This document shows, one piece after another, positions 2,765 to 55,822 of a stretch of 64,000 bases of DNA. Each line of letters starts with the position of its first letter. Position 1 is the first letter of the stretch. Under the pieces are notes generated by a model that was given only the letters and a program-made list of their open reading frames with translations, made no database searches and had not been told where the DNA came from. The position numbers were made by a program, and so were the translations under genes. This stretch comes from Alphaproteobacteria bacterium (GTDB taxonomy: Bacteria; Pseudomonadota; Alphaproteobacteria; UBA828): NCBI GenBank assembly GCA_965214705.1, contig OZ243972.1, forward strand, positions 672,001 to 736,000. The letters are read 5' to 3'.

Positions 2765-2904
2765 TCTCTCCTGCTCGACTGTATCCAGGAGGCGCCAAAA
2801 AACATCTTAGAGTCCGCAGCTTACCTCGACTTATGCCGTTGTCTGTTCCCACCGCTTTGTATATGTTCCCAACATTGGTGTTGGCATGAATGTGGGGATG
2901 GGAA

Positions 2905-4098
2905 GTGTCGAAACTGACAGCTGCGGGGATACGGAGCCTGAAGACGCCTGGCATGCACGGCGACGGAGCCGGGCTCTACCTCAAGATCTCACGCACCGGC
3001 GCCCGGTCGTGGATACAGCGCGTGGTGATCTCAGGGAAACGGCGAGACATCGGTCTGGGTCGGTTCCCGGATGTCGGCCTTGCCCAGGCACGCGATAGTG
3101 TAACGAACAACCGCAGGCTGATCGCGGCCGGCGGCGATCCGCTCGCCGAGAAGCGCAGGGTCGCCACCCCAACGTTTCGGGAGGCCGCCGAGCGCACGTA
3201 CGAAGCGAACAAGCCGCGCTGGCGCAACGGCAAGCACACGGTGGGCTGGTGGCAGTCGCTGGAGCGGCACGCCTTCCCGATCATCGGCGACTTGCCCGTT
3301 GACCAGATCGGCCGAGAGGACGTGCTGCGCATCCTTACACCAATTTGGCATGTACGCATGGAGACCGCGCGGCGCGTCAGGCAGCGCATCCGCACGATCC
3401 TCAAGTGGGCCATGGCTCACGGATATGTCGAGAACAACGTCGCGGGCGAGACGATCGACGGCGCGTTACCGCCCATGCCGAGGGTCAAGAACCATTTTCG
3501 AGCGATGCCTTACGGCGAGGTGCATGAGGTGATCGAGGCCGTAAGGGGATCGAGAGCCTCCCTGGCGTCCAAGTGGTGTCTCGAGTTCCTGATCCTGACA
3601 GCCGCGCGGTCAGGCGAGGCGCGCGGCGCTTGCTGGTCAGAGATGGATACGGACACCGCCACTTGGACCGTCCCGGCCGAGCGCATGAAGGCCAAGGTCG
3701 AGCACCGCGTACCGCTCTCGCCTCGCGCCATGGCAATCCTGGCGGAAGCCAAGTCCATCCAGCATTTCGCGAGCGACCTCGTGTTCCCGTCTCCTCTGCG
3801 GCCGGGCAAGTCGATGAGCGACATGACCCTGACCAAGCTGCTGCGCGATCTCGCATTCGCCGATCGCACCACAGTCCACGGATTCCGGTCGAGCTTCCGG
3901 GACTGGGCGGGCGAGTGCACAAACGCGCCGCACGCGGTCATGGAGCTCTGCTTGGCCCACGCGGTGGGCAGCGCCGTTGAGGCGGCCTATGCGCGGTCTA
4001 CGCTGCTTGAGAAGCGCCGCGCTCTTATGGAGCAATGGGCGGCCTACCTGGAGGGCGAGGAAGGACGCGTCGTGCCGATGGTGCGCCACCTTGGATAG
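2905..4098 (+). CDS. P4-like tyrosine integrase with N-terminal arm-binding domain
   Basis: HGDGAGLYL...RRDIGLGRFPDVGLAQAR arm domain; catalytic residues in ARSGE, RMK, HGFRSSFR, LAH and AAYAR; probable GTG start at 2905. Confidence 0.95.
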   Translation: MSKLTAAGIRSLKTPGMHGDGAGLYLKISRTGARSWIQRVVISGKRRDIGLGRFPDVGLAQARDSVTNNRRLIAAGGDPLAEKRRVATPTFREAAERTYEANKPRWRNGKHTVGWWQSLERHAFPIIGDLPVDQIGREDVLRILTPIWHVRMETARRVRQRIRTILKWAMAHGYVENNVAGETIDGALPPMPRVKNHFRAMPYGEVHEVIEAVRGSRASLASKWCLEFLILTAARSGEARGACWSEMDTDTATWTVPAERMKAKVEHRVPLSPRAMAILAEAKSIQHFASDLVFPSPLRPGKSMSDMTLTKLLRDLAFADRTTVHGFRSSFRDWAGECTNAPHAVMELCLAHAVGSAVEAAYARSTLLEKRRALMEQWAAYLEGEEGRVVPMVRHLG

Positions 4099-5270: not shown

Positions 5271-5679
5271 TCCTATGGTTCGAAAAGGAACGCGCCCGCC
5301 TGGATGCAGGGTCCAGGACGGGCGCGGCGGATCTCATAATCGACACGAGACCGCAAATAACTTAGCCCGCACCCGCGGCGCTCGCAACAGCGCCACGGTC
5401 TACCCTGCCCGCAAGCCCGCATGCCCGACCTGCGGGACACCGCCGGCGACCAAGACTGTGCTCGAGGTGGGCGTCGAGCTGCAGGAGGTCCTGCCGAAGA
5501 CCAAGCACGGCGAGAGCGGCGGCAAGAAGCCTAGGAGCTCGGACGTCGAGCGCCGGATCCGCGAGGCGCGGCGGTCCCACGATCCCTGTGTGGAGATCGA
5601 GCGGATCCGCCACGAGCAGGGCTACCCTGAAGGCTGGTTCGAGCAGATCGCGGGCCTCTGCGGGATCTTGCCCCCGTGA
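5239..5679 (+). CDS. Hypothetical protein with a CxxC motif (start uncertain)
   Basis: CPTCG motif; stop overlaps the primase start (GTGA). Confidence 0.45.
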   Translation: MRSASTRASHDPMVRKGTRPPGCRVQDGRGGSHNRHETANNLARTRGARNSATVYPARKPACPTCGTPPATKTVLEVGVELQEVLPKTKHGESGGKKPRSSDVERRIREARRSHDPCVEIERIRHEQGYPEGWFEQIAGLCGILPP

Positions 5680-8132
5680 AGACGTTGCTCGACTACCTCC
5701 GCGAGGACGGCATCGAGCCGCGCAAGGAAGGCAGCCGGTGGGTGGCGCTCTGTCCCTTCCACCAAGAGAAGACCCCATCCTTCAGCATCGATCTCGAGAA
5801 GGGGAAAGGAGGCCTCTACAAGTGCTTTGGCTGTGGCGAGGGGGGTGATTGCGTCACCTACCTCGAGAAGGCCCGTAAACTCACTAAGAAGGCGGCCCTT
5901 CGCTTGCACAAAGGGTCGCCTTCTAATGGGGCACAACCGAGCCGTGAAGGCCTCGACCGCTCCCCGGATCACAAGGCCAACGCCAAGCCTAAACAACCTC
6001 CGTTCGTTACCGAGCTGCCCCGGAACGCGCTCGCGATTTGGGATTACGTGGACGCTGAAGGCCGGCTCAAGTTCAAAATCGCGAAGCTCCCGCCGGGCCC
6101 CGACGGCAAAAGGAGGTTCTGGCCCTACACGCGCGGCAAGAAGGGGAACAAACGCGGCTGGATCATCAAGAACCTCATGAAGAAGGATCGCCCGCTCTAC
6201 CTTCTGCCCCGGCTCCTAAAGGCCCCCAAGGGCCAGCAGGTCATCGTCGTCGAGGGCGAGAAGTGCGTCCACGCGACGCTCGAGGCGTTTCCGAAAGCCT
6301 GCGTCACCACTTGGTCACACGGCACCCAATCATGGCGGCTCACCGATTTCTCGCCGATCTACGGCCGCAAGGTCCTGCTCGTCTCGGACGCCGACGAGAC
6401 CGGGCGCGAGGCGATGACTGGAATCGTTCAACTTCTCGTGAAGCACGAGTGCAAGGTGCGCGTCGCGCTCCCCCTCGGCGAAAGCGGTGACGACATTGCC
6501 GACGAGTTCGAGAAGGGCGGCACCGAAGGCGCCGCCAACTGGCTCAAGGGCCTGGCGAAGGACTACGAGCCGCCGAAGCTCCAAGTCGCAGTTACACCGG
6601 GCTCGGGCGAAGCCGCGGACACGCCGGGTGCCGGCGGTACCGCAGACACGCCGGATGAGCGCGCGGCCCCAAACGCGCCGGACTCACCGGACGCAGGCGA
6701 AGCCACAGATACGACGGATATAGCAGACAGCACGGACTGGACTAAAGATCTCCTTAAGCGAGCGGAGAATGACCCCGGCGCTCCGTTCGAGCCGGAAATC
6801 GTAGAGAAGATAAGGAAACTTAAGCACACCAACATGGCCTCGTGGATGCGCCTTAGAGCCAGTCTGCGGTTCAAGGCTAAGGTGCCTGTCGGAGAGCTTG
6901 ACAGAGAACTGAAAAAGAGGAGCCAAGATCTGGAACTCCTAGCCTCGCGAGGGCAGACATTGGAGTGGCCGGAGGATGAGCTCTGGCACGACAAAGTAAA
7001 CGGTGACGAATTGCTAGGTGAACTGGCCGCACAGTTCAAATTCCATGTCGACATGTCGGAGGCGCAGGCCGATACCGCGGCACTATGGGTCATGTATTCG
7101 TGGTCACATAATCAATGGGAAATATCGACCTTCCTGAACATCACAAGCGCGACAAAGCGGTGCGGCAAGTCCCTGTTGGTGGAGGTGATTGAGGAATTCG
7201 CAATTCGCCCGCTGAACTTAAGCGGGCACACAACATCGGCAGCTCTATTCCGTACGATCGAGCAGCATCGGCCAACAATTCTTCTCGACGAGGCCGATAC
7301 GTACCTTAGAGAAGATGAAAACTTGCGTGGCCTAATCAATGGCTCTCAACGCCTAAAGGGCGCTCAAGCATTGCGCATGGTCAAACTGGGAGACATTTGG
7401 CAACCAGCTTGCTTTGCCACATACTGCCCCAAGGTCATCGTCGGAATCGGCACTGTTCCCGGTACAATACTTGATCGCTCAATCGTGATTGAGCTGGAAC
7501 GTCGCACGTCGGGCGCCAAGAATATGCCGTTCTGGGGGGACCGCAATAAGGAAGAGACGCAAGCCATCCGGCGGAAAATGGCCCGATGGACGAATGACAA
7601 TGGCGCGTCGCTGGCTAAACCACGGCGTGATGTGGTCTTCCCGCCCGGCCTCCACGACCGGGCCCGCGACGCTTGGGCACCGTTGCATTCGATCGCCGAA
7701 TGCGCAGGCGGAGAGTGGGCCGAGACAAACGGTCGCGCGTGGAGAGCCTGCATGGCCATCACGGCTGCTACCATCGATGAGACGGACATAGCAGAAATAC
7801 TGCTGGCCGATATGCGGCAGGTGTTTTACGAAGCAGCGGATCCGCCGCATCTGCCAACCGGCAAACCTGACGCTGCTTACGACAATTTTAGTCCCGCCAT
7901 CCTCCCGGCACTAATCGCAATGGAGGGGCACCCTTGGTCGGAATATTCACGCAATCGGCCACTATCTCCGCGTGGTCTGGCGAAGCTGCTCAAGCGCTTC
8001 AAGATCACGCCGTGCACGATCCGGCTCGAGGCGGGTGCAACGCCGAAGGGATACAAGCTCGAATCGTTCGTGCCGGTTTGGAAGCGCTACGACATTGGCA
8101 AGCCCGAGGACCCTCCCGATCCTATGGGCTGA
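5676..8132 (+). CDS. Satellite-type primase/replication protein: CHC2 zinc finger, Toprim and DUF3631-like C-terminal region
   Basis: CPFHQEKTPSF...CFGCG; VVEGEKC...SDADETG...GDDIAD; ATKRCGKS P-loop-like motif, LLDEAD, DRARDAW. Confidence 0.88.
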   Translation: MKTLLDYLREDGIEPRKEGSRWVALCPFHQEKTPSFSIDLEKGKGGLYKCFGCGEGGDCVTYLEKARKLTKKAALRLHKGSPSNGAQPSREGLDRSPDHKANAKPKQPPFVTELPRNALAIWDYVDAEGRLKFKIAKLPPGPDGKRRFWPYTRGKKGNKRGWIIKNLMKKDRPLYLLPRLLKAPKGQQVIVVEGEKCVHATLEAFPKACVTTWSHGTQSWRLTDFSPIYGRKVLLVSDADETGREAMTGIVQLLVKHECKVRVALPLGESGDDIADEFEKGGTEGAANWLKGLAKDYEPPKLQVAVTPGSGEAADTPGAGGTADTPDERAAPNAPDSPDAGEATDTTDIADSTDWTKDLLKRAENDPGAPFEPEIVEKIRKLKHTNMASWMRLRASLRFKAKVPVGELDRELKKRSQDLELLASRGQTLEWPEDELWHDKVNGDELLGELAAQFKFHVDMSEAQADTAALWVMYSWSHNQWEISTFLNITSATKRCGKSLLVEVIEEFAIRPLNLSGHTTSAALFRTIEQHRPTILLDEADTYLREDENLRGLINGSQRLKGAQALRMVKLGDIWQPACFATYCPKVIVGIGTVPGTILDRSIVIELERRTSGAKNMPFWGDRNKEETQAIRRKMARWTNDNGASLAKPRRDVVFPPGLHDRARDAWAPLHSIAECAGGEWAETNGRAWRACMAITAATIDETDIAEILLADMRQVFYEAADPPHLPTGKPDAAYDNFSPAILPALIAMEGHPWSEYSRNRPLSPRGLAKLLKRFKITPCTIRLEAGATPKGYKLESFVPVWKRYDIGKPEDPPDPMG

Positions 8133-12694: not shown

Positions 12695-13558
12695 TTAACC
12701 ATTTGGATCAAACAATTGAGCGAGTTCAGTTACAATTTCGTCTATGCTAAGAATTGAGGTGTTCAGCGCCACTTTGTCAGCCAACGTTGGGCTATATTGG
12801 GTAACCTCGTCCTTTGATATTTCATGCCAAATTGGGAGAATACGACTTCGGCCCTCAATTTCAAGATTTACCAAGCCATCCAACTCCCGCTGGGGCCACT
12901 TCTTTGCAATAAAATGTCGAGATATAATCACTATTCCAAAACGTGATTGGACTAGCCCTTGGTCAATTCTCTGTCGCAAACTATCCCCTATCTTTAGAGT
13001 GAACTCATCATACCAAACCCTTGCTCCTTTAGCTCGAAGAGCTTCCGCTAAAGCGTGAACAAAACTGTCTTTGTCTTCACTAGCATGAGAAATAAAGAAA
13101 TCATAGCTATCTCTAGGTTGAGGAGCTAGTTGGCGTGACACAACCGGCGTGGATTGCAATGTTGCACGAGACCTTATTTCCCTAGTGATTCTTCTTTCGT
13201 GTTGTTCGCGCTCACGAATTTGCTTTTTCTCTTGGTCGGCACGTCTTTTTGCCTCCCTTTGCACTTCTTGTGAGTGTCGGTCCTGACATGAGTTCAAGCT
13301 TCTTGACTTATCCGATATTTTTCTGGAGATATCCGCTCTCCGCTTTTGAACATTCGCCAAATCTTTCATCGCGCGCTCGGCTTCTCGCGCCTTACTCTGA
13401 AACGTCGAGGAACTTCTTGTTTTGGAAGCAGCTTCGTTAGCACGGTTTATTTTCGCAATAAGGTCAGCTTCCCTTCTTGCTTCTCGAGCGTCGTTAGCAC
13501 GGAGGTCCGCGATTTCCTTCGTAAAACGATTGATCTGGTTTTGGTTAGCGGAGGTCAT
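12695..13558 (-). CDS. Coiled-coil plus TIR domain protein (TcpB/BtpA/PdTIR-like architecture)
   Basis: Long charged helical N-terminus; YDFFISHASEDKD, VWYDEFTLKIGDSLR, and KKWPQRELDGL with the catalytic Glu. Confidence 0.92.
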   Translation of the reverse strand: MTSANQNQINRFTKEIADLRANDAREARREADLIAKINRANEAASKTRSSSTFQSKAREAERAMKDLANVQKRRADISRKISDKSRSLNSCQDRHSQEVQREAKRRADQEKKQIREREQHERRITREIRSRATLQSTPVVSRQLAPQPRDSYDFFISHASEDKDSFVHALAEALRAKGARVWYDEFTLKIGDSLRQRIDQGLVQSRFGIVIISRHFIAKKWPQRELDGLVNLEIEGRSRILPIWHEISKDEVTQYSPTLADKVALNTSILSIDEIVTELAQLFDPNG

Positions 13559-13901
13559 TTTTCTCTTGGCGGAACTGGGAGCGCTGTTGCGCCGGAAGGA
13601 AAAATGTCGATGGCCCAGTCGCATTGCTGCGTCCGGCTATATCGGTACCGTGTTGAAGCCGCTCCGGGTGCAGAGGCCGCCTTCGGGTGTAACAGTCTCT
13701 GTACGACCGACCTTTATGAAGGATCTGATAGGCGACGAGGCGGTAATTGCTGACCGAGGCGGAGTTGCTGCTACAGTATCTTTCTTCGTTGAAGTAGATG
13801 TCGAAATTATCGTCGCTGCAGTCGGCAAGAGTGTGGGCTTGAATCGCGAACAGATCGATCGAGCAAACGCGGTTGAGGACGGTAGTCATGCGCGGCATCA
13901 C
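13545..13901 (-). CDS. Possible small hypothetical protein inside the TIR operon
   Basis: ORF fills the gap between two TIR genes on the same strand; no recognisable motif. Confidence 0.3.
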   Translation of the reverse strand: MMPRMTTVLNRVCSIDLFAIQAHTLADCSDDNFDIYFNEERYCSSNSASVSNYRLVAYQILHKGRSYRDCYTRRRPLHPERLQHGTDIAGRSNATGPSTFFLPAQQRSQFRQEKNDLR

Positions 13902-13910
13902 TGCTTCGCC

Positions 13911-14516
13911 TTAGGAGTTGGCACGCCGCATGGGCTGGCTCAGGTCGTAGCCACAGTTTGCTCGGTTACGAAAGGCAGCTTCAATCAGAAATTTGAGAGT
14001 CTCGCCGTTTATTCGTTCCCAGGGAACGACGGAGATTGTGACATCGGATTTCATGAGGTTGTCGATGAGCCGGCTTGGCATGCGGGGATACCGACGCTCG
14101 TACTCCGCTCGTTTGTCGATTGTTGTCCATGACGTAATATTTGGATACAATAATCGCTTTTCTTGTTCCCCATAGGGTGCGTGAAAATAGTCAGAAATCC
14201 CAGGAAGATTGATAACTACAATGCCCGATCTCTTGTTGACCGAGCCATCGTACATGCTCGAATGAATTTCCCAATCGACGTGTTTTCGCCGTCTGGTCTC
14301 TGTACCGACCAAAACAACGGTGACCGTGGAGTCCCTGAGATAGCGGTCTCTGATTGCCCGACGAATTTGTTCATCGGTCCATGTGTGAGGAATATCTCCG
14401 GTATCGACAGACCTGTCGACAAATATTGAATAACGCTCGCCAAAGTCTACTAACGCTTCCTTGTACCTTTGATCGTTATCATGGTGATAACTAATGAATA
14501 CTTTGTGCATAGCCAT
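13911..14516 (-). CDS. ThsB-like TIR protein (MTH538/DUF1863)
   Basis: HKVFISYHH, YLRDSTVTVVLVGTET and HVDWEIHSSM (catalytic Glu). Confidence 0.9.
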   Translation of the reverse strand: MAMHKVFISYHHDNDQRYKEALVDFGERYSIFVDRSVDTGDIPHTWTDEQIRRAIRDRYLRDSTVTVVLVGTETRRRKHVDWEIHSSMYDGSVNKRSGIVVINLPGISDYFHAPYGEQEKRLLYPNITSWTTIDKRAEYERRYPRMPSRLIDNLMKSDVTISVVPWERINGETLKFLIEAAFRNRANCGYDLSQPMRRANS

Positions 14517-15330
14517 TCTTATTTGTAACGATTTGATGTAAACCACGGGATACGATGTCGACTGCCTCTTGGATATGAGGCGTCCGAGCTAGGACATAGT
14601 TTTCCTCCTGGGAGAGACCGTTGTGTAGATCGTCCGGGGAATAGTTGCGAAAACAGTCTCTTCCGGACCAATCCTCGCGCGAGCCTCCCCAGCGTTCGGA
14701 GAGCCCGAGTGTTTCCGCGATGTCGCGAGCGCAGCCGCCGAAGCCGCCCAGCAGGAAGACCGGCTGACCGGCGTCAAGCGAGAGGTATGTCTCCTCGGCG
14801 ATACCCGGCATGGCGCCTTTGAATCCCTCGACTCTGCCGCCCAGAACGATCCGAGCAGATATGTCGGCGAGCATGACGGTTCGCATTGAGGTCAGTCCTT
14901 TCGCCCATTCATACTCCTGAGGTGCATGCGCAGGAAGGCTCATACGTTGTTCCCGTTCAAGACGTGCGCCGTCCAAGGAAAGGAAGACGAGGTGAGCGGC
15001 CGGCTCGTGGTCCGCAGAGAACGCTGCAAGTTCGTTCGAGGTCATGCTGATGTGCACCGGCCACGCCAGGTAGTCTGTCACGACTATGGTGCCGGCGTGC
15101 CGCGGATGACCCCGATAGCGTCCAACCAACTCGGCCAAGAGCTGGGTAAACCCGTGTTGTCGCAGATCCCCGCCGTATGCCAGACTAATTCCAGAAGCGA
15201 GCAAGCGCAGTGCAACCTCAGCCATGGCGTCGCGCAAATGTCCGTCGCTCAGGCCGAGGACGCGGAGGTCGGGGCTCTCTGAAATCGAGATCCCGACCGA
15301 GGGGGTTGTCTCCGCTTGGGGTGAGGTCAT
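14491..15330 (-). CDS. SLOG-superfamily protein (LD_cluster2-like), candidate signal sensor/effector
   Basis: VGISISES, LAYGGDLR..GFT, GLTSMR, ARIVLGG, MPGIAEE, PVFLLGGFGG; overlaps both neighbours. Confidence 0.82.
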   Translation of the reverse strand: MTSPQAETTPSVGISISESPDLRVLGLSDGHLRDAMAEVALRLLASGISLAYGGDLRQHGFTQLLAELVGRYRGHPRHAGTIVVTDYLAWPVHISMTSNELAAFSADHEPAAHLVFLSLDGARLEREQRMSLPAHAPQEYEWAKGLTSMRTVMLADISARIVLGGRVEGFKGAMPGIAEETYLSLDAGQPVFLLGGFGGCARDIAETLGLSERWGGSREDWSGRDCFRNYSPDDLHNGLSQEENYVLARTPHIQEAVDIVSRGLHQIVTNKNGYAQSIH

Positions 15331-16502
15331 CGACGTTCCTCCAGCCAGTCCGTCAAGGTCTGTACGCGTACCCCCGGTGCGATTTCCCGGAACAGCCTCT
15401 CATCGTCGGCGCTTAGAAGGGGTTCAGGATATACGATCGTGTGAGCCGAGTCCTCGGCACCAAGTGGTACTGCAGCCAAAGCGATCAACTCTGGTGGGCG
15501 TGCCGTGAACAGGACTCCTGGAGCATCCGTCATATACGACCCTACACGGCAAAGCCACAGCCAAGTGCGGAAGACCTCATCCAGGAGGCAGCCTGCAACC
15601 GTCCCGATCCGGTCACTACGGTCCGGATCCATACGGACGACCGGAACGTTCCCCAGATAGGACATCCCGCGCGGATCTACATCTCGCACGCAATCGACCA
15701 CGATCATGGGCACCAGGCGACGTTTCGCTTCGATGACTTCGCGCCGGCACCATTCGCGGGATGAGTACGAATCAGTATGGACCGCTAGGAGCGCGCCTGC
15801 CCCGATCTCATGCAGCAGTACGTCTCCGAACGAAAGCCCCGGCGGGATGTCATAGACATCGAAGAAGCTGTCGAGCGGGCTGTGCGTGTGGATCCAGTCG
15901 CGAATGCTGCGTCCCACGGATTCGCCATCGCCGTCATGCTTCGAGTGGCTGATGAAGACCCGAATCTTGTCCAGATAGCGTCCGAGCGTGTCGTCTCCAG
16001 CGCCGGCGGGCCGGAGTTGGTCGAGGCCATGTCGGAGCATTCGACAGAACTCGTGAGTGAGATCTGAGGTGAGGCGTCGTGCAGGGTCTACATCGGACGC
16101 GTCCCAGCGGTCCCACCGGAGGGCTTGCTGTGCGACCCCAAGGCCAAGGCCCCGGCGGTCCATTGTCACCGGGAAGAACCCGGCCGGAAGTCCTCGCCGG
16201 TGCGCGGCATCCGCGATGGCGGATGCGTAGTCGACCCACTCGCGATCTTCAACTAGGTTCGATTCCGCCAGAACCACAACGGCGGTAAACTGCGAGTCAT
16301 CCCAGTGGATTGGCAAGGGAGTGAGCGCGCCTGGCACGGGCTGGCTACGCTCAAGGACGCTTACGGCACGCTCCTGCCCGACGCCCCGATAGAGATCACG
16401 ACCAAAGTGCGTGCGGAGGAGATCAGCAATCTGCTGTCCTTCGCGATACGATGGATGCCACACCACGTACAGCGTGAACATCGGACCTGTCGATAACTCC
16501 AT
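15327..16502 (-). CDS. TIR domain protein with an N-terminal degenerate TIR-like region
   Basis: RVFISHSKHDG, FFDVYDIPPG and YSSREWCRREV (catalytic Glu); ATGA overlap with the SLOG gene. Confidence 0.88.
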   Translation of the reverse strand: MELSTGPMFTLYVVWHPSYREGQQIADLLRTHFGRDLYRGVGQERAVSVLERSQPVPGALTPLPIHWDDSQFTAVVVLAESNLVEDREWVDYASAIADAAHRRGLPAGFFPVTMDRRGLGLGVAQQALRWDRWDASDVDPARRLTSDLTHEFCRMLRHGLDQLRPAGAGDDTLGRYLDKIRVFISHSKHDGDGESVGRSIRDWIHTHSPLDSFFDVYDIPPGLSFGDVLLHEIGAGALLAVHTDSYSSREWCRREVIEAKRRLVPMIVVDCVRDVDPRGMSYLGNVPVVRMDPDRSDRIGTVAGCLLDEVFRTWLWLCRVGSYMTDAPGVLFTARPPELIALAAVPLGAEDSAHTIVYPEPLLSADDERLFREIAPGVRVQTLTDWLEERR

Positions 16503-17127
16503 GGTGCTGAAAACCCAGTCTCACGTTCGTTCAGTAATTCGCTCATTCATTCGGCGCCGATCCCGATTGCGTTGGATGTTTGTGGAAAGCAGCCTCGGCT
16601 CCTCGTCCGGATACACGCAAGGTGGGATCAAAGGCGAACTCATGGTCACGGGTTTCTCCGTCATTGCAAGCGTCTTTCGCAGCTACTTGCATAGGCCTCG
16701 GTTCAGGCTCCCCACGTCTGGGCTGCGCAAGCCCGTCGTGGGCTGCCGTGTCGATATTCAGTCTGGATCCATTTGCGGCATCGGCACTTTCCTGGGGACG
16801 GCCTCGGTGCTGCCATGACGCCAAAGGCTATCGTTGTGGGCGCCCCACAGTGAAGTTGTCGGGTTGCGCCGTCTCGACTGGGATGATCTGCGGCCTGGTG
16901 AGGACGCTGAGGCTCTGGTACGTGGTCTCGTGGTGGCGGGTGACGAGATCGGCACGGTGCGCCGCACGGGCGGGAGGGGTTGCCCGAGAGGGCTTCACCG
17001 CCAAGATTCCAACCGTGCGCGGCTGGCGGGGTTGAATTTGGCGATCAGAACCCCAGATGTAGTGTTTTGGGCGAGGGAAGGCCATACCCGTCGTGTTCGG
17101 TGGATTTGGCCAATCAGGAGAATCCAA

Positions 17128-17418
17128 GTGTCGGAGAGCAGATCTCACAAGACAACGGCGAATCGTTTGGCGGCCCGGTACAACACCGAGTACAACCGTG
17201 GACCGGGGGCCGACATCAAGGCGGAGGGCATCACGATCGAGGTAGAGACACCCGACACGGTCGCTGACGCGGGCAGGCAGCTGAGCGGTCATCGTGGTCC
17301 GGTATATGTCGCGGGGACAAACCAGAAGGCGGTAGAGCAGGCGCTGGACCGGTACGAGGACTCGACCATTGGCGTTATGAACAATCGAGGAAATATCATC
17401 AAGCCGTCGACGCGGTAG
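17128..17418 (+). CDS. Small protein with a PD-(D/E)xK-like nuclease signature
   Basis: AGGAG RBS before GTG 17128; SH......GADI...TIEVET resembles the H...D...EVE restriction-fold motif. Confidence 0.55.
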   Translation: MSESRSHKTTANRLAARYNTEYNRGPGADIKAEGITIEVETPDTVADAGRQLSGHRGPVYVAGTNQKAVEQALDRYEDSTIGVMNNRGNIIKPSTR

Positions 17419-17559
17419 CCTGCGGCGCTTTACGAATCAAGGTTCCGCAGACCCGCGATTGTCCGTTGCTCCAGCGTTCCATGCGCTATCCGGATTGAAT
17501 GAGGCGTAAAGCTCATTCGCGGCTTTGCAACCTAGGGATCAGAGGAGACCGCATAGATT

Positions 17560-18144
17560 ATGGCACGCTATTTTTCGGGCACGAGAAGCGAATTTCTCAC
17601 GCTTGAAGCTGCATCGAAGAGGGATTTGACGTGGGATGTTTTTGTGTCCCATACCACCGAAGACGACGATGTCGCGGAAGAGGTCGCCGAGTGCATCCGG
17701 AGCTTCGGGCTGTCGGCATGGGTGGATTCCGACCATCTGGACAGTAAGCATGATGGACCGAGTATGGCGTCCATTATCCAGGGGGTGATCCGACGGTCAT
17801 ACTGCTTACTGGCTGTCGTGACGAGCGCGACGAACGAGTCGTGGTGGGTGCCGTTTGAAATTGGTGTGGCTTCCGACAGAAAGAGGTACCTGTCCACATT
17901 CGGGGACCCGCGAGTGTTACTGCCGTCATTTCTTGCGGCCTGGCCGCGCGTGAGGGATCACGCGGAGCTGCATTTGTGGTGCTCCGAGGTGAAGAAAAAG
18001 AAAGCAACGCATAGGCCAATAATCCATGAATCGTATGTAGAGGTGGCGAGCGCACAGCGCTCCAGCTACGCTAGTGACATGAGAGCAATGGCCCGAAGGT
18101 TCCCAGGGCTCCGATGGGGTGTAGGTCTGGCATGGCGATCGTAA
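17560..18144 (+). CDS. TIR domain protein; the last residues are read through into the IS end
   Basis: WDVFVSHTTEDD, SAWVDS and SWWVPFEIGVA (catalytic Glu); GAGGAG RBS. Confidence 0.9.
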   Translation: MARYFSGTRSEFLTLEAASKRDLTWDVFVSHTTEDDDVAEEVAECIRSFGLSAWVDSDHLDSKHDGPSMASIIQGVIRRSYCLLAVVTSATNESWWVPFEIGVASDRKRYLSTFGDPRVLLPSFLAAWPRVRDHAELHLWCSEVKKKKATHRPIIHESYVEVASAQRSSYASDMRAMARRFPGLRWGVGLAWRS

Positions 18145-19795
18145 GTCATTGATTTAGCGCGATTGGCGGGTGGCCGTAGGCAGCCAGAATCGGGTTTTCG
18201 TGACAATCGGCCGGTGCAGGGCCGGATTTTGTCACAACGGCGGCATCCAGCAGTGGTGGGTGGGAACGCTCCGCACCGCGAGATGCGGTAGGATGCCGCG
18301 CCGACAACCCAACATCAGACCCAACATCAGGAGCGTTCCCATGCCAGTGTCGCAGTCTCTCATCGCCTCGTCCATCGACCTTTTGGGCCTGCCTGCCGAA
18401 GTCGCCGAAGCGGTCGCCCAGGTGGTGGAGTTCTGTCGCGAACAGGCTGGGTCTGACCCGTCTGCCGAGACGTTCGAAACGGTTGAGACGGGGCTGCGGG
18501 ACGCCATGAACGGCTTGGGTTGCAAGCTCCTTGGGGCCTTCGCCGAGAGCCGCGACGACGGTGCGAGCCGGATCGAGCGCGACGGACAGAGCTGGGTCCG
18601 GGTGGCGGCGACGCCGAAGACGATCATGACGACGCTCGGTCCCGTGACCTATCGGCGTGCGCGCTATCGCAGCGGCGCGAGCAGCACGTCGCTGGTGCCG
18701 GTGGACGAGAGCCTGGGCCTCATCGACGACTACCTGACGCGGCCGGCGGCGCAGCTCGGGCTGATGATGATGGGCCACTGTACGCCGCGTGAAGCGGAGG
18801 AGTTCTTCGCGAAAATGGGCGGAATGACGCCGTCGGTGAGCACGCTGCAGCGCCTGGCCCTGAGCATGCATGAGCACTGGGAGAGCGTCGCCCCGGAGAC
18901 GCTGGCCAGCATCCGTGAAACCCAGGGCATACCGCCCGATGCGGTCACCGCGTCCGTCTCCCTTGACGGCGTCATGGTGGCGCTGCGGGCCGGCGAGGAC
19001 GGCCGTGCCGAGGCGTGCTGGCGCGAGGCCTCTTGCGGCACGGTCTCCTTCCACGACGCCGAGGGCCAACGGCTGAAGACCCTCTATCTCGGCCGTATGC
19101 CCGAGAGCGGCAAGGCCGCGCTGAAAGCGCAACTTGCAAGCGAGGTCGCCCATATCCGCCGTGTGAGCCCGAAGATCAGGATCGGCGCCGTCGCCGACGG
19201 GGCCGCCGACAACTGGACCTTCCTCGAAAGCCTCTCGCCCGAGACCGAGGTCATCGACTTCTGGCACGCTTGCGAGCATCTCCGCGTGGCCTCTGACCAT
19301 GCGGTGGCGCGCCACTGGTTCGAGAAGCACCGCGAAATCCTGCGCCACGACCCCCGCGGCGTCGACAAGGTGATCCGGGCACTGCGCTACCTCCTGGACA
19401 GGGCAAAGGGGGACCCGGCCGAGATCGAGCGCGAGCTGGCCTTCTTCCGAAAGCACCGCCATCGGATGCGCTACCACGCCCTGAAGGAAGAGGGCATCGC
19501 CATCGGCTCGGGTGTGGTCGAGGCGGCCTGCAAGACCCTCGTCGCGCAGCGCTTGAAACGCTCGGGCATGCGCTGGCGGATCGACGGCGGGCAGGCGGTT
19601 CTGACCTTCCGCGCCCTGATCAAATCCGGCCTCTTCGACCGGGCATGGGATGCGCTCATGGACGCCCGATCCGGACCAGCTAACGACAACATCAGCCCAA
19701 CCGAAGTCCTGGCACTCGCTGCTTGACCAAAATGAACCAGCCCATATCCTTTAGCGCCATCACGACTGGCATATCGCCATACGAGAATCACACCC
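18117..19795 (+). mobile_element. ISKra4/ISLre2-like (p-MULT) insertion sequence
   Basis: Imperfect 23-bp TIRs GGGTGTAGGTCTGGCATGGCGAT and ATCGCCATACGAGAATCACACCC; 8-bp TSD CTCCGATG at 18109..18116 and 19796..19803. Confidence 0.9.
18341..19726 (+). CDS. ISKra4-like DDE transposase
   Basis: SLDGVMV, VADGA..NW, IDFWHACEHL and IGSGVVEAACK...RLKRSGMRW. Confidence 0.9.
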   Translation: MPVSQSLIASSIDLLGLPAEVAEAVAQVVEFCREQAGSDPSAETFETVETGLRDAMNGLGCKLLGAFAESRDDGASRIERDGQSWVRVAATPKTIMTTLGPVTYRRARYRSGASSTSLVPVDESLGLIDDYLTRPAAQLGLMMMGHCTPREAEEFFAKMGGMTPSVSTLQRLALSMHEHWESVAPETLASIRETQGIPPDAVTASVSLDGVMVALRAGEDGRAEACWREASCGTVSFHDAEGQRLKTLYLGRMPESGKAALKAQLASEVAHIRRVSPKIRIGAVADGAADNWTFLESLSPETEVIDFWHACEHLRVASDHAVARHWFEKHREILRHDPRGVDKVIRALRYLLDRAKGDPAEIERELAFFRKHRHRMRYHALKEEGIAIGSGVVEAACKTLVAQRLKRSGMRWRIDGGQAVLTFRALIKSGLFDRAWDALMDARSGPANDNISPTEVLALAA

Positions 19796-19800
19796 CTCCG

Positions 19801-20184
19801 ATGAGCGAAGAAAAGAGCGATTTGGCAACACTGTTCGGCATCTACAAGATTCATGCCGAACTCGCGGAACAAGCTGCCAGCTCAAGAGAGAGCTTGAACA
19901 AGCTCTACTCCGGTATGGTCACGGCGATCGTAGCGGGTTCGGTGCTAATTCACCGTGTGGCCCCGGATTCCGATACGATGTGGGTATTGCCAGTTCTTGG
20001 AATTGCTGTATCCCTGTCTTGGATGATGTCGCTTCACTCAGCGACGGGACGGCTGTCCGCCAAGCACGCGGTTCTGTTGGAATTAGAATCTAAACTACCG
20101 TTTGCCTTCTTGAAGCGTGAAAATGGGTACTGGGTTGCTTTGAAAGATAGAAAGATAACGCCAGAAGTTACACCACTAATTTAG
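19801..20184 (+). pseudogene. Small two-TM membrane protein, C-terminally truncated at 20124 by the IS1-like transposon
   Basis: Two hydrophobic segments; YKIHAELAE...R...N.LY and W......L.AKH.V...LE..LP pattern; codons after 20124 lie in the transposon TIR. Confidence 0.7.
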
Positions 20185-21275: not shown

Positions 21276-22130
21276 ATGAATCAGCTATCGAGGGAGAAGC
21301 GTAGACTTATATTACACTTGCTTGTGGAGGGAATGTCGATACGTTCTATTTGTCGAGTGCTAAAAGTATCTAAATCTGCGGTCACGAAACTACTGGTCGA
21401 TGGCGGCAAGGCTTGTCAGAAGTATCACGACAAAAAGGTACGCAGGCTAAATTCACTGGTGATCCAGTGTGATGAGATATGGTCATTTATCTATGCCAAG
21501 GACAAGAACCTGCATAAATGTATAGCCGCTCCAGCTTGGGCAGGCACGACATGGGCATGGACCGCGCTGGATAGTGAGAGCAAACTAATAATCTCGTACA
21601 TGGTAGGAGATCGGTCGGCAGATACCGCGATAGAATTCATGCAGGACGTAGAATCTAGACTGTTGAACAGGGTACAGATTACTACAGACGGTCATCCGGC
21701 CTATAGGGACGCGGTCTTAGAGGCGTTCGAGGGCGAAGTAGATTTTGCGCAATTGGTAAAGACATTTGACGATAATTGTCCCGGTATAAATCTAAGGGCC
21801 GTAGAAGGCGACCCGCAGGAAAACGATATTAGCACTAGTTTTGTAGAGCGGCAGAATCTAACCATGCGAATGGGCATGAAGAGATTTAGCCGTAAAACAA
21901 ATGCGCACTCGAAAAAAATAGAAAACCACTGCCACATGATAAGCCTGTATTTCGTCTACTACAATTTTATTCGTATACACGAGACCTTGGGAATCACGCC
22001 AGCTATGGCTGCCGGTGTCAGTAAAAGAGTAAGAGACCTAGATTGGCTGGTTGGTTTGATAGATAAAAATGCACCGAAGCCTAAGCGGCCCAAGCGATAT
22101 AAGAAGCGGAAAAAGAGAGATTGTAAATGA
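21276..22130 (+). CDS. IS1-family DDE transposase (single ORF, N-terminal HTH)
   Basis: EGMSIRSI HTH; IQCDEIWSF, QITTDG and STSFVERQNLTMR. Confidence 0.9.
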   Translation: MNQLSREKRRLILHLLVEGMSIRSICRVLKVSKSAVTKLLVDGGKACQKYHDKKVRRLNSLVIQCDEIWSFIYAKDKNLHKCIAAPAWAGTTWAWTALDSESKLIISYMVGDRSADTAIEFMQDVESRLLNRVQITTDGHPAYRDAVLEAFEGEVDFAQLVKTFDDNCPGINLRAVEGDPQENDISTSFVERQNLTMRMGMKRFSRKTNAHSKKIENHCHMISLYFVYYNFIRIHETLGITPAMAAGVSKRVRDLDWLVGLIDKNAPKPKRPKRYKKRKKRDCK

Positions 22131-22176: not shown

Positions 22177-22770
22177 CTAGGTTTGCATACTGATATTATA
22201 AGTGCCCTCAAGCTGGAGGTTGGAAATCTCATGGACGATACCTTTATCCTTTGCCCAGTTAGCATCATACACCCGTTGAACGTCGAAAAATTCGCGGGCC
22301 TTGGAGCGTTCCAACAAGCTACGGCTGGAGATTATATCCCCAATCCTTGTATGGTCCGCTTCAACACTATCCAAGTACTCTCTGAACTGCCGACCGTCGA
22401 GCCTTGTAGGACTGTTGAAATCAAATCCTACACTGTGAAACAAAAATATCGAAGTGGGCGCACAATATCTTTTTTCCCCTGCCAAGAAAAGCACATTAGC
22501 GATTGAATCTATATGACCTACATTGTAAGTAATCAGGGTGATAGGTAATGACCTCATCATCGTATAGCAATGTATCCCAGCATGAACATTGCCTCCATTG
22601 CTGTTAATTAGCAAATGCACCTCTGCTGATCTGGTAGAAATTTCACGAAGAGTTATTATGAGTTCATGCATGGTTTGGTCATTTACGCCACGCGAAAACC
22701 ATACGTACTCTGTCGGTTTTGTTGCCACTGCTTCCGCCTCGGGGTTGTGAATATTGTTTGCACGTAGCAT
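22177..22770 (-). CDS. ClpP-family serine protease
   Basis: HLLINSNGGNV, IDSIANVLFLAG (catalytic Ser) and FLFH (His). Confidence 0.85.
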   Translation of the reverse strand: MLRANNIHNPEAEAVATKPTEYVWFSRGVNDQTMHELIITLREISTRSAEVHLLINSNGGNVHAGIHCYTMMRSLPITLITYNVGHIDSIANVLFLAGEKRYCAPTSIFLFHSVGFDFNSPTRLDGRQFREYLDSVEADHTRIGDIISSRSLLERSKAREFFDVQRVYDANWAKDKGIVHEISNLQLEGTYNISMQT

Positions 22771-23335: not shown

Positions 23336-23926
23336 AGGGGAAGATTTCTCAAATACGACGTGCATGCACTCCCGGACTTTGACGCAGAATTTCCGGAAGA
23401 GGAGAGACTTCCACAGACATTTAGGATTGAAATCAAACAGCGGGGAACCGGAAAGTGCTACCTAAGGTGGAATGAAGTATTCATTGGGAACCCGTTGACT
23501 GACAATATAGAAGCTTCGGATGACTATCGTTTTCATGATGTATTTCACTTTGCGCATGCAGCCATACTGCACTGGTCGCCTACATTTCGCTCGCTCATTC
23601 GGCAAAAACGCAAGAGTGATGAGAAGTTCGACGAGAATCAGGACGGAGGACGAGCGATCGTAATTGAGGAAGGTTTAACAGCATATATATTTGCGTGTGC
23701 AAAGGAGTTAAACTTCTTCGAAGGTCAGTCGTCGATTTCCTTTGATCTCCTAAAGACGATTGGGAATTTCGTACGAGGTTACGAGGTGGAGCAGTGCCCT
23801 CTCAAGCTATGGTAAGATGCGATATTGCAAGGCTATTCTGTTTTCAGGTCATTACGTGAGAACAGTGGCGGCGTAGTTGTGGGCAACAGAGTAACGCGGA
23901 CCATTTCTTACGAAGAGGAGGGATGA
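23336..23926 (+). pseudogene. MazG-like nucleotide pyrophosphohydrolase, MazG_C domain only; 5'-truncated with an internal TAA at 23813
   Basis: IGNPLTDN...DYRFHDVFH.A.AAILHWSP..R.....KRKS....DE.QDGGRA...EEG; frame continues W*DAILQGY..FR to a TGA overlapping the UDG start. Confidence 0.78.
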
Positions 23927-24600
23927 TGGCTGTTACGAATCCATGGGGTATCGTATCCATGGTAAGGGATTTGAGATTCCCGAACACGTTCAATCCGTAT
24001 GTCGAGCGGTGCGAGAAGTATGATAAGCCAAATGCACCGGAGATTAGAGCCTGTGTGCTTCTCGATATTTTGTGTGCGGCGGGTAAGGCCGACATTGATG
24101 CAATATGGATTGGTCGGGATCTAGGCCATCGCGGTGGTCGACGGACTGGCTTGGCACTGACTGACGATTTCTGGTTTTCCGCTCATACCAGACGATGGGG
24201 GGTGGACGTGGACCGACCCACACGTGGTCCGATAGTGCGGGAGAGGACCGCGACTATTGTGTGGGAAATGCTTGAACTGATCGAGGAAAATGTTTTTCTG
24301 TGGAACGTGTTTCCGCTTCATCCGTTTCCAAAAGATGATATGTACCGAGATCGCGCGCATATCGCGATTGAGCGCGACGCAGGCATGGTACTGCTACTCA
24401 GGTTGGTATCGTTCTTGCGGCCACGACGGATTATCGCAATCGGCAAGGACTCGGCACGAGCATTGGGCAACAAAACGGTGGAGGTGGACGTATTGGATGT
24501 ACGACACCCCAGCTACGGGGGTGAGAGGCGGTTTCGCGAGCAAATCGCTTCGCTTTACGGCTTAGGGATTTGTGATTCCCGGCCAAGCCTTCAATTGTAG
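23923..24600 (+). CDS. Uracil-DNA glycosylase superfamily protein
   Basis: FNPY, IGRDLGHRGGRRTGLALTD, ERTATIVW, WNVFPLHP and VRHPSYGG. Confidence 0.85.
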   Translation: MMAVTNPWGIVSMVRDLRFPNTFNPYVERCEKYDKPNAPEIRACVLLDILCAAGKADIDAIWIGRDLGHRGGRRTGLALTDDFWFSAHTRRWGVDVDRPTRGPIVRERTATIVWEMLELIEENVFLWNVFPLHPFPKDDMYRDRAHIAIERDAGMVLLLRLVSFLRPRRIIAIGKDSARALGNKTVEVDVLDVRHPSYGGERRFREQIASLYGLGICDSRPSLQL

Positions 24601-55796: not shown

Positions 55797-55822
55797 GGGT
55801 TCGAATCCCACTCCCTCCGCCA
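55797..55822 (+). repeat. attR core (duplicated tRNA-Ser 3' end)
   Basis: 26/26 identity to 2739..2764. Confidence 0.95.

Follow-up and report, generated by a model that had tools for sequence, protein, structure and literature searches.

The closest described relatives of the locus investigated in this study are found among Thoeris systems. In type I, a ThsB TIR protein is paired with ThsA, a SIR2-SLOG protein whose SLOG domain is of the STALD type according to the accessible part of PMC13276650. Type III consists of ThcA and the ThcB TIR proteins (van den Berg et al. 2024, as cited in the accessible parts of 10.64898/2025.12.03.692087, 10.1101/2024.10.24.620036 and PMC13276650), and the first of these sources describes, in the same part, an architecture of multiple TIRs accompanied by a stand-alone SLOG protein. 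It also contains types with membrane effectors, which are 2TM-Macro in type II, DUF2270/ThsF in type V and SLATT/ThsH in type VII.

Our analysis concerns a window of 64,000 nucleotides from an alphaproteobacterial genome, in which genes for TIR, SLOG, membrane and nuclease-like proteins span 7.5 kb and are centred on a divergent intergenic region of 625 bp (Table 1). Open reading frames and Pfam searches recover all four TIR genes proposed in an initial annotation, each with its motif around a catalytic glutamate as in Thoeris TIR proteins, namely WPQRE, VDWE, WCRRE and WVPFE. In alignments, the glutamate corresponds to that of WP..EL in TcpB/PdTIR and of VRYE in B. cereus ThsB, where we take it to be the catalytic residue. 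A profile search of the 7.9-Mb genome located all three matches to PF13676, the single match to PF18163 and one of three matches to PF08937 at this locus, and the clustering of TIR and SLOG genes at 12695-20184 is thus not due to chance. With a tRNA-Ser gene, an integrase gene and low GC content in its surroundings, the stretch is, in our judgement, probably part of a horizontally acquired defence island that holds four independent units rather than one system. By sequence comparison, these would be a Thoeris-like cassette of three genes and candidate defence system (unit A), a stand-alone TIR of the AbTir/PdTIR family corresponding to PDC-S66 (unit B), an orphan protein of 96 residues with a nuclease-like predicted fold (unit C) and a Thoeris-like pair of TIR_D and 8xMP, apparently once translationally coupled and today split by an insertion sequence (IS, unit D). 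The modules would represent variants of Thoeris-type signalling with a putative role against phages.

Table 1. Features of the locus (positions in the window).
Feature	Position	Strand	Description
S66 TIR	12695..13624	-	309 aa; coiled-coil + TIR, AbTir/PdTIR/TcpB family
ThsB-like TIR	13911..14516	-	~199-201 aa from conserved Met; ORF listed to 14546
SLOG cluster 2 (SLOG279)	14491..15330	-	279 aa; stand-alone
TIR_A	15327..16502	-	391 aa; first gene of conserved trio
96-aa protein	17128..17418	+	predicted restriction-endonuclease-like fold
TIR_D	17560..18144	+	present ORF 194 aa; native 185 aa, ends 18115 + restored TGA
ISKra4-like IS	18116..19796	+	1,681 bp; transposase ORF 18170-19726
8xMP membrane protein	19801..20184	+	native 127 aa; PF24838, 2-TM

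The properties of the proposed unit A are reflected in the sequences of its three proteins, TIR_A, SLOG279 and a ThsB-like TIR. TIR_A (model pLDDT 81, AF2) contains an N-terminal alpha/beta domain (residues 1-~165) that matches no recognised family, a TIR domain (~180-300; Pfam TIR_2, 5e-8) and a conserved C-terminal domain (~300-391), and the glutamate of its WCRRE motif, E255, is invariant across all 20 sequences of an alignment. SLOG279 is a member of PF18163 (3.7e-71, 240.2 bits over residues 11-221, with a gathering score of 25.3) that finds no match among NCBIfam and PADLOC models; among its 1,879 homologues, identity amounts to 67-100% for the best 120. The ThsB-like TIR matches PF08937 (ThsB_TIR, 1e-19), its E93 within VDWE is invariant in all 15 aligned sequences, and, at E 2e-3, a profile built from these 15 sequences detects ThsB of B. 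cereus (6lhy) as well as ThsB1 (9b7d). The SLOG gene overlaps its neighbours on either side as had been annotated, its start with the stop of TIR_A as ATGA and its end, over 20-26 nt, with the ThsB-like gene, provided that the latter starts at a conserved methionine (14516 or 14510), where conservation begins with MHKVFISYHH.

The coherence of these three genes emerges from a survey of 38 loci anchored on the SLOG gene, which show 54-89% identity and are distributed over Alpha- and Gammaproteobacteria, Rhodothermales, Binatia, Acidobacteria, Chloroflexi and Actinobacteria. TIR_A is located upstream of SLOG in 31 of these loci and the ThsB-like TIR downstream in 28, and the full trio is intact, with all three genes at a coverage of at least 93%, in 13. 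No other gene family is common to more than six of the 38 loci, and the left arm, annotated as an operon of four genes, thus reduces to three that are conserved together. Many of the loci contain truncated or frameshifted copies, which could reflect decay or assembly errors. A search of 30 relatives, 18 of them in the same genus, did not find the SLOG protein, which fits horizontal transfer. All three genes are also present on a Klebsiella plasmid with 45-50% identity, where the ThsB-like TIR (50%) is relocated to a divergent position upstream.

The layout of the left arm parallels that of a true type III locus that we have inspected, where ThcB4 is followed by the small SLOG protein ThcA with small TIRs flanking the pair. 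At both loci, a large TIR protein of ~380-390 residues with central TIR domain directly precedes the SLOG gene, SIR2, Macro or caspase effectors are absent, and the left arm shares with type III the presence of several TIRs and a stand-alone SLOG without further effector domain. In contrast, TIR_A reaches only 30.9 bits, confined to the TIR core, against the ThcB4 model NF058526, where the cut-off is 220 and the true member scores 452, and SLOG279 shows no match at E<=10 to the ThcA model NF058525 (cut-off 110 bits), for which true ThcA scores 245 bits. Profile comparisons extend over 67 columns of the SLOG core for SLOG279 and ThcA (hhalign E 0.078) and over 61 columns of the TIR core for TIR_A and ThcB4. 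ThcA, moreover, is a protein of 188 residues of SLOG cluster 3 (PF18180) whereas SLOG279 belongs to cluster 2 (PF18163), and the conserved trio comprises one small TIR compared to several in type III. By the available models, we have thus rejected membership in type III, with the likeness of the left arm, annotated as Thoeris III-like, being one of layout only. Type I is ruled out because Pfam detects SIR2 in none of the ORFs at this locus, as had been noted for the left arm. The trio resembles type I in the proximity of a PF08937 TIR to a SLOG-containing partner and in a proposed logic where an ADP-ribose derivative made by a TIR would act via SLOG on an NADase, but it differs in the type of SLOG (cluster 2 instead of STALD, the latter as given in the part of PMC13276650 referred to above) and in its putative NADase, which would be a TIR on a polypeptide apart from SLOG that is fused to it in relatives.

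Pfam searches identify no classical effector domain in the trio, and its proposed mechanism relates to the logic of the SIR2-SLOG protein ThsA, with SIR2 replaced by a TIR and the receptor encoded as a separate polypeptide. We infer the assignment of sensor and effector roles to the TIRs, the nature of the signal and all phenotypes. The ThsB-like TIR would sense infection and convert NAD+ into a signal derived from ADP-ribose, the SLOG protein would bind this signal, and SLOG and TIR_A would act as one unit in which bound SLOG switches on the NADase activity of TIR_A, whose depletion of NAD+ would abort the infection. SLOG is proposed to work as a unit with TIR_A because of gene fusions in relatives: among 85 longer SLOG homologues, 63 are fused proteins in which SLOG is preceded N-terminally by a TIR_A-like region, in all 63 cases with the domain order matching the gene order and in 48 with at least 80% coverage of TIR_A. 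The role of TIR_A as NADase effector thus draws on these fusions and on the analogy to SIR2-SLOG proteins, but the fusions could also be explained as a generator joined to its own receptor. A wiring in the opposite direction, with TIR_A as sensor and generator, SLOG as receptor or as enzyme processing the product (a LOG-type N-glycosidase), and the ThsB-like TIR as NADase effector, appears unlikely to us, although several features can be accommodated by it. The two additional conserved domains of TIR_A could sense phage, TIR_A and SLOG form the most conserved pair, which is kept without an adjacent small TIR in loci L030 and L032, SLOG279 retains two Gly-rich nucleotide-pocket motifs besides many invariant residues, and catalytic roles have been proposed for some SLOG clades by the Aravind group, in the accessible part of PMC9503650. 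On the other hand, proteins of PF08937 are known signal generators of Thoeris, as evident from the family name and from the PDB matches, and a diffusible signal would gain little from a fusion of generator and receptor. Further fusions join the PF18163 family with patatin (2 cases), AAA ATPases (14) and a combination of TIR and CHAT protease (8), which marks it as a sensor module, and SLOG279 can be aligned to a SLOG-patatin protein over the sensor domain of the latter. We thus favour TIR_A as the candidate effector and the ThsB-like TIR as the candidate generator.

The remaining TIR of the left arm, S66 TIR, matches Pfam TIR_2 (6e-22) and, from end to end, the PADLOC model PDC-S66 (1.2e-104, positions 4-280 of 282). 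Its matches to the PDB entries 4lzp, 3h16, 4lqc, 7uwg and 8g83 (E 2e-57 to 3e-49), from the AbTir/PdTIR/TcpB (BtpA) family, cover its own TIR domain and the linker before it, with no difference found, and it appears to be an ordinary member of this family of coiled-coil TIR NADases. It is probably either independent of the trio or an accessory sensor, and its role at the locus may lie in defence, accessory sensing or interaction with a host. S66 TIR, and perhaps TIR_D, as extra sensors of the ThsB type that feed SLOG279 and widen the range of detected phages is a reading to which we assign a distinctly low probability. S66 TIR is co-directional with the trio at a distance of 286 bp, four small TIRs surround ThcB4-ThcA in the true type III locus, and the accessible part of PMC13069673 cites Thoeris systems in which different phage cues are served by several TIRs. 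Moreover, a plasmid of Pseudomonas veronii harbours four TIR genes of similar kinds, including AbTir-like, ThsB-like and TIR_D-like ones, around a TIR_A-SLOG core, so that the grouping of multiple TIRs with this core is recurrent. S66 TIR is, however, absent from all 38 SLOG-anchored loci, PADLOC treats S66 as a single-gene candidate, and TIR_D had a coupled candidate effector of its own. While S66 TIR is thus best described as a separate unit, an AbTir-like gene adjoins the core in one of three plasmid loci, and in light of the AbTir-like and TIR_D-like genes in P. veronii the independence of unit B may be incomplete.

The second Thoeris-like module, located in the right arm, combines TIR_D (TIR_2, 1.7e-10), which matches PADLOC ThsB models (1.8e-12) and weakly AbTir, with the announced two-TM protein, which belongs to PF24838 ('8xMP'; 44.6 and 45.4 bits at a cut-off of 30, profile positions 3-103 of 136) and displays two hydrophobic helices in the hydropathy profile (~35-55 and 59-80). 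The initial annotation, in which the locus ended at 20124, overlooked an IS of 1,681 bp between both genes and the extension of the native 2-TM gene to 20184. The IS provides the last nine codons of the present ORF of TIR_D and, in the 2-TM ORF as listed (from 19723), the first 24. Its terminal inverted repeats are imperfect, the target duplication measures 6 bp (TCCGAT), and the genome contains 22 further full-length copies of 100% identity. The element is thus a mobile IS, whose assignment to the ISKra4 family is approximate, as its transposase scores 168.4 bits against NF033572, under the cut-off of 205. The insertion point coincides exactly with the gene junction, where an IS-free reconstruction restores an overlap of the TIR_D stop and the 8xMP ATG as ATGA, and a sponge metagenome contig (run X8) contains the IS-free junction, with 1,687 nt skipped. 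In this pair, TIR_D would make a signal that triggers oligomerisation or opening of 8xMP as proposed effector. Among 39 other 8xMP loci, nine have a TIR gene immediately upstream (4 of 17 and 5 of 22 in two genome samples), frequently with 4-nt overlaps. Most high-scoring 8xMP proteins adjoin housekeeping genes without TIR, and the family is therefore not purely defensive. With a small TIR and a small membrane protein encoded in one operon of two genes, the pair resembles types II, V and VII in general design, as outlined in the accessible part of 10.64898/2025.12.03.692087. In a comparison covering these three types, its proposed effector differs by its assignment to PF24838 and has no match to Macro, DUF2270 or DUF6650; SLATT families of Pfam likewise yield no match at E<=10 for the 8xMP protein of the locus or two TIR-linked relatives.

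The small gene between both arms has a GTG start preceded by AGGAGA and 189 homologues, the best 120 of which are 61-93% identical. Its AF2 model (pLDDT 91.5) suggests a PD-(D/E)xK-like fold, where E3, D29, E38 and E40 are invariant in 28 sequences and the (D/E)xK position is without lysine. The best structural neighbours (PaqCI, SPO1766, AF2093, NucS, Can1/Can2 and YaeQ), the top ones being of this fold, are found at Z 5.0-6.5 only, and Foldseek matches are weak (E >= 0.08). The gene annotated as nuclease-like is thus present and conserved, and its predicted fold may be that of restriction endonucleases, but it is not a fixed partner of TIR, SLOG or 8xMP. The gene neighbours vary across 13 metagenome loci anchored on the 96-aa gene, and the gene was not found in 400 other genomes of the phylum. 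By its genomic distribution, it is outside both TIR modules and has no fixed partner genes.

These distributions also bear on the combined bidirectional architecture initially proposed, in which all seven genes would form one system, with the right arm contributing nuclease and pore outputs for signals of the left. The location of the genes within 7.5 kb around the divergent intergenic region, the concentration of four of the six TIR-family genes of the genome and the grouping of four TIR genes with the TIR_A-SLOG core in P. veronii would be in line with such a system, but we consider it highly improbable. In the loci surveyed, the two arms do not occur together: genes for the 96-aa protein, 8xMP or S66 TIR are absent from all 38 SLOG-anchored loci, one of which (L032) has a weak TIR_D-like match, and relatives of TIR, SLOG or 8xMP are absent from each of the 13 loci in which the 96-aa gene served as anchor. 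TIR_D, by its former ATGA coupling to 8xMP, forms a self-contained module of two genes instead of an additional output of the left arm, and elsewhere 8xMP partners with unrelated TIR subtypes. Four independent units thus remain our preferred description.

The stretch, which the initial annotation had described as a single bidirectional defence system spanning both arms with four TIR proteins, is better regarded as holding two uncharacterised Thoeris-type variants together with one member of an already known TIR family and one orphan gene, the whole set being located on a mobile island. Every gene named at the outset is present, as confirmed by the listing of open reading frames and Pfam matches (table), and the catalytic motifs of all four TIR proteins are intact. 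In the left arm, a trio composed of the large protein TIR_A, the stand-alone SLOG protein SLOG279 and a ThsB-like TIR is separated by 286 bp in the ORF listing from the gene of a coiled-coil TIR (S66 TIR). The SLOG gene indeed overlaps both neighbours, since its start shares an ATGA with the TIR_A stop and its end extends 20-26 nt into the ThsB-like gene, as measured from the conserved start MHKVFISYHH of the latter. The clustering of TIR genes is not due to chance, as in the 7.9-Mb genome all three matches to PF13676, one of three to PF08937 and the sole match to PF18163 are found at this locus.

Features of the locus and its surroundings (positions counted from the start of the window)
Feature	Position	Strand	Remarks
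tRNA-Ser(GCT)	2672-2764
Tyrosine integrase	2890-4098
Primase-like protein	5676-8132		CHC2 zinc finger and DUF3631
S66 TIR, coiled-coil TIR, 309 aa	12695-13624	minus	motif WPQRE
ThsB-like TIR	13911-14546 (listed ORF)	minus	PF08937, motif VDWE
SLOG279, stand-alone SLOG cluster 2 protein, 279 aa	14491-15330	minus	PF18163, 240 bits
TIR_A, 391 aa	15327-16502	minus	TIR_2, motif WCRRE
96-aa ORF	17128-17418	plus	GTG start preceded by AGGAGA
TIR_D	17560-18144 (listed ORF)	plus	motif WVPFE
Insertion sequence	18116-19796
8xMP protein		plus	third plus-strand gene, PF24838
IS1-like transposase	21276-22130
ClpP-like protease	22177-22770		top NCBIfam matches ClpP and phage head-maturation protease, all under cut-off
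MazG_C-domain gene	23360-23815		7 kb from TIR_A
UDG-superfamily gene	23923-24600		7 kb from TIR_A
Exact 26-nt repeat of the tRNA-Ser(GCT) 3' end	55797-55822

Sequence comparison argues for a conserved left-arm unit of three genes. Near-length homologues of SLOG279 number 1,879, the best 120 of which are 67-100% identical, and a SLOG-anchored scan with one genome per species provided 38 loci, with identities of 54-89%, whose hosts belong to Alpha- and Gammaproteobacteria, Rhodothermales, Binatia, Acidobacteria, Chloroflexi and Actinobacteria, a spread that we place at at least seven phyla. Once all window proteins had been mapped onto these loci, TIR_A was found immediately upstream of SLOG in 31 of the 38 and the ThsB-like TIR immediately downstream in 28, with all three genes present at a coverage of at least 93% in 13, the rest being incomplete because of truncation, frameshifts or contig ends. 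In many of the loci the TIR_A or ThsB-like gene is shortened or out of frame, and TIR_A of locus L022 carries a 2-kb insertion; such broken copies could reflect either frequent decay or errors in long-read assembly. All-against-all clustering of flanking ORFs revealed no further family shared by more than six of the 38 loci. The S66 TIR, the 96-aa gene and 8xMP are found in none of them, even at E 1e-3, and a weak TIR_D-like match is confined to a single locus (L032). Among 30 relatives searched, 18 of the same genus, SLOG279 was not found. Despite its wide spread, the trio has no PADLOC 2.0 or NCBIfam model, SLOG279 itself lacking one in PADLOC 2.0.

Three plasmids carry the TIR_A-SLOG core. 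On one from Klebsiella pneumoniae the three genes are all present, 45-50% identical and bearing generic RefSeq labels only, the small TIR having shifted to a divergent position, and on one from Rhizobium a TIR_A-like gene interrupted by IS3 accompanies SLOG. A Pseudomonas veronii plasmid (L107 745-5198) contains five co-directional genes encoding AbTir-like (annotated 'molecular chaperone Tir'), ThsB-like, TIR_A-like, SLOG and small TIR_D-like proteins, and thus four TIRs and a SLOG as in the window, in another arrangement.

The relationship between TIR_A and SLOG279 is illustrated by protein fusions. In a search for longer proteins, SLOG279 retrieved 85 homologues, whose regions were mapped by BLAST. 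In 63 of these a TIR_A-like region is N-terminal to the SLOG region, matching the order of the two window genes in 63 of 63 cases, and the fused form is common. In 48 fusions the covered part amounts to 80% or more of TIR_A and includes both its N- and C-terminal domains, with the database protein P0242 sharing 41% identity across residues 1-386. These fusions suggest that TIR_A and SLOG279 function as one unit. Further partners of the SLOG family include AAA-type ATPases (14), TIR with a CHAT protease (8), patatin (2) and EF-G domains (2), as counted from precomputed Pfam lists with the domain order verified for P0242, P0255, P0246 and P0308, a pattern typical of a ligand-sensing module that is joined to different effectors. 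The N-terminal domain of TIR_A has no Pfam match at E<=10, nothing under E 1.9 in a PDB profile search and an hhalign probability of 0.3% against the ThsB-like family. The profile of the complete protein has no PDB match at E<=0.01, and the neighbours in a structure search all align to the TIR domain (176-316), which thus barely probes the N-terminal domain. A language-model atlas places TIR_A next to TIR-family clusters at 0.87-0.91, which serves as a lead only.

In the accessible parts of the respective reports, type III Thoeris is described as a SLOG effector accompanied by several TIR proteins, its signalling being stated as unknown (10.64898/2025.12.03.692087; 10.1101/2024.10.24.620036; PMC13276650). 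Of 401 genomes of the phylum, 7 contain true members as defined by the NCBIfam models ThcA and ThcB4, the best locus comprising, in this order, three small TIRs, a SLOG-patatin protein, ThcB4 (452 bits), ThcA (245 bits; PF18180, SLOG cluster 3) and one TIR. The trio shares with type III the succession of a large TIR immediately followed by a small SLOG, and in this respect the left operon is Thoeris III-like, as had been proposed. However, the proposal does not extend to membership, as TIR_A reaches only 30.9 bits on the ThcB4 model and SLOG279 has no ThcA match at E<=10. In profile comparisons, the alignable part is limited to the TIR core (61 columns, E 0.011) and, between SLOG279 and ThcA, to that of the SLOG domain (67 columns, E 0.078). 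With the same layout built from different families, the trio thus appears to be an architectural sibling of type III Thoeris rather than a member. In the true type III locus L047 (7696-9312), the small TIRs and ThcB4 are separated by a 538-aa protein whose N-terminal domain is SLOG cluster-2-like and which also contains a patatin (CBASS-lipase-like) domain; this protein may act as an additional effector that responds to the same TIR signals.

A second pronounced feature of the locus concerns the coupling of TIR_D to 8xMP. The 2-TM gene noted at the outset is present, although an insertion sequence of 1,681 bp that separates it from the fourth TIR had been overlooked. This element was recognised from its repeats elsewhere in the same genome, where 22 additional full-length copies, all 100% identical, bring the total to at least 23. 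It has imperfect terminal inverted repeats, a 6-bp target duplication (TCCGAT) and an ISKra4-like transposase (168 bits, under the NCBIfam cut-off of 205), and resides exactly at the TIR_D/8xMP junction, where it contributes the final 9 codons of the TIR_D ORF and the initial 24 codons of the listed 2-TM ORF. In silico excision of the element with one copy of the duplication restores a TIR_D of 185 aa, whose TGA overlaps the ATG of 8xMP (19801) as ATGA, and an 8xMP of 127 aa. An IS-free allele is found in nature, in a contig of sequencing run X8 (labelled sponge metagenome, from a separate study to that of the best holders) that connects 18108 to 19796, omitting 1,687 nt, with flanks of 142 nt and 204 nt containing 2 differing letters each. 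The disrupted and IS-free natural alleles offer a ready comparison. The number of identical copies suggests that a burst of transposition occurred recently, and in runs X1 and X5 the element is sequenced about 20-fold deeper than its flanks. Outside the window, the genome contains two more ThsB_TIR genes (C1:4118117-4118401 and C1:863061-863360), the latter about 0.5 kb away from a further copy of the element.

Of 401 genomes of the phylum, 17 contain a match to PF24838, as do 21 of 391 of the class, and from these we have examined 17 and 22 8xMP loci, respectively, outside the window's own genome and excluding L098, which is short and interrupted by stops. A TIR gene is located immediately upstream on the same strand in 9 of these 39 loci (L056, L057, L058, L062, L081, L082, L084, L095 and L100), with most pairs overlapping according to stored gene coordinates, which suggests that TIR and 8xMP form a recurrent pair. 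The TIRs belong to different subfamilies and their 8xMP partners share 26-28% identity with the window protein. Since the highest-scoring 8xMP members adjoin housekeeping genes without a TIR, the TIR-linked proteins form a divergent subset. The window protein has no detectable similarity to SLATT, Macro or DUF2270, its sequence retrieves nothing meaningful from the PDB, and a literature search for '8xMP' returned only unrelated papers.

The remaining two genes appear to belong to neither variant. The S66 TIR matches the PADLOC candidate PDC-S66 end to end (1.2e-104) and solved TcpB/BtpA, PdTIR and AbTir chains at E 2e-57 to 3e-49, and thus appears to be an ordinary member of this family. The 96-aa ORF, with 189 homologues and invariant E3, D29, E38 and E40 in 28 aligned sequences, is by these comparisons a genuine conserved gene. 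Its earlier description as nuclease-like is plausible: the confidently predicted structure (pLDDT 91.5) has restriction-endonuclease-like folds as closest solved neighbours, at Z 5.0-6.5 only and Foldseek E >= 0.08. The neighbours of the gene vary over 13 metagenome loci (SIR2_2, DpnII-type endonuclease, HsdM, ThiF-JAB, HD hydrolase and others), none of which places a TIR, SLOG or 8xMP relative beside it; together with the absence of S66 TIR, 96-aa gene and 8xMP from the SLOG-anchored loci, this argues against the assignment of both arms to one system. The gene is found in none of 400 other genomes of the phylum and has no match in the phage collection. Its assignment to a module with TIR_D and 8xMP was rejected, as BLAST detects no relative beside TIR-8xMP pairs.

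TIR signalling is common to bacterial, plant and animal immunity. In the mechanism that we propose, the ThsB-like TIR would upon infection make an ADPR-derived signal that would be bound by SLOG279, with TIR_A and SLOG279 together acting as NADase effector by analogy with the SIR2-SLOG protein ThsA, and the product of TIR_D would open or assemble 8xMP in the membrane. The opposite wiring, with TIR_A as generator and the SLOG protein as enzyme, we consider unlikely. The proposal that the locus combines two uncharacterised Thoeris types, a TIR-SLOG(cluster 2) effector with a ThsB-like sensor TIR and a TIR + 8xMP module, is itself tentative and its chance as a whole falls short of even. If correct, TIR domains would serve as both signal writer and executioner within one pathway, a TIR domain would replace SIR2 as SLOG-gated NADase in a widespread effector that is either split or fused, and 8xMP would be a small, probably oligomeric, new receptor and effector for a TIR-made, possibly novel nucleotide. 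The TIR-8xMP pair contributes a candidate membrane receptor for TIR products. If TIR_A were a SLOG-gated NADase, it would exemplify in simple form the activation of one TIR by another via a small molecule and, owing to the layout common to both, would help to explain the uncharacterised type III Thoeris. The number of Thoeris types in bacteria is rising rapidly, with eleven verified and 29 predicted types listed in the accessible part of a 2025 preprint (bioRxiv 10.64898/2025.12.03.692087), and the trio or the TIR-8xMP pair may already be among the latter. Our literature search found no described TIR-SLOG-cluster-2 system, although Figure 1C or Table S1 of this preprint may contain one.

The locus is located on a low-GC stretch following the tRNA-Ser, integrase and primase-like genes of the table, which together with the repeat of the tRNA 3' end at 55797 suggests that the TIR cluster lies within an island integrated at the tRNA, or within islands in tandem, with an extent of up to about 53 kb. 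Between 20001 and 24000, the GC content is 44-46% compared to about 65% in the flanks, and this segment also holds several ORFs without family. Its MazG_C and UDG genes may constitute a second module in loose linkage. On the Rhizobium plasmid (L106 321-1291), their homologues, at 51% and 46% identity, are located immediately upstream of the TIR_A-SLOG core, a MazG_C homologue (46%) resides close to the core in L032 (3509-3919), and the chimeric database protein P0250 combines TIR, SLOG, dCTP-deaminase-like, MazG_C, ThsB_TIR and Nmad2 regions.
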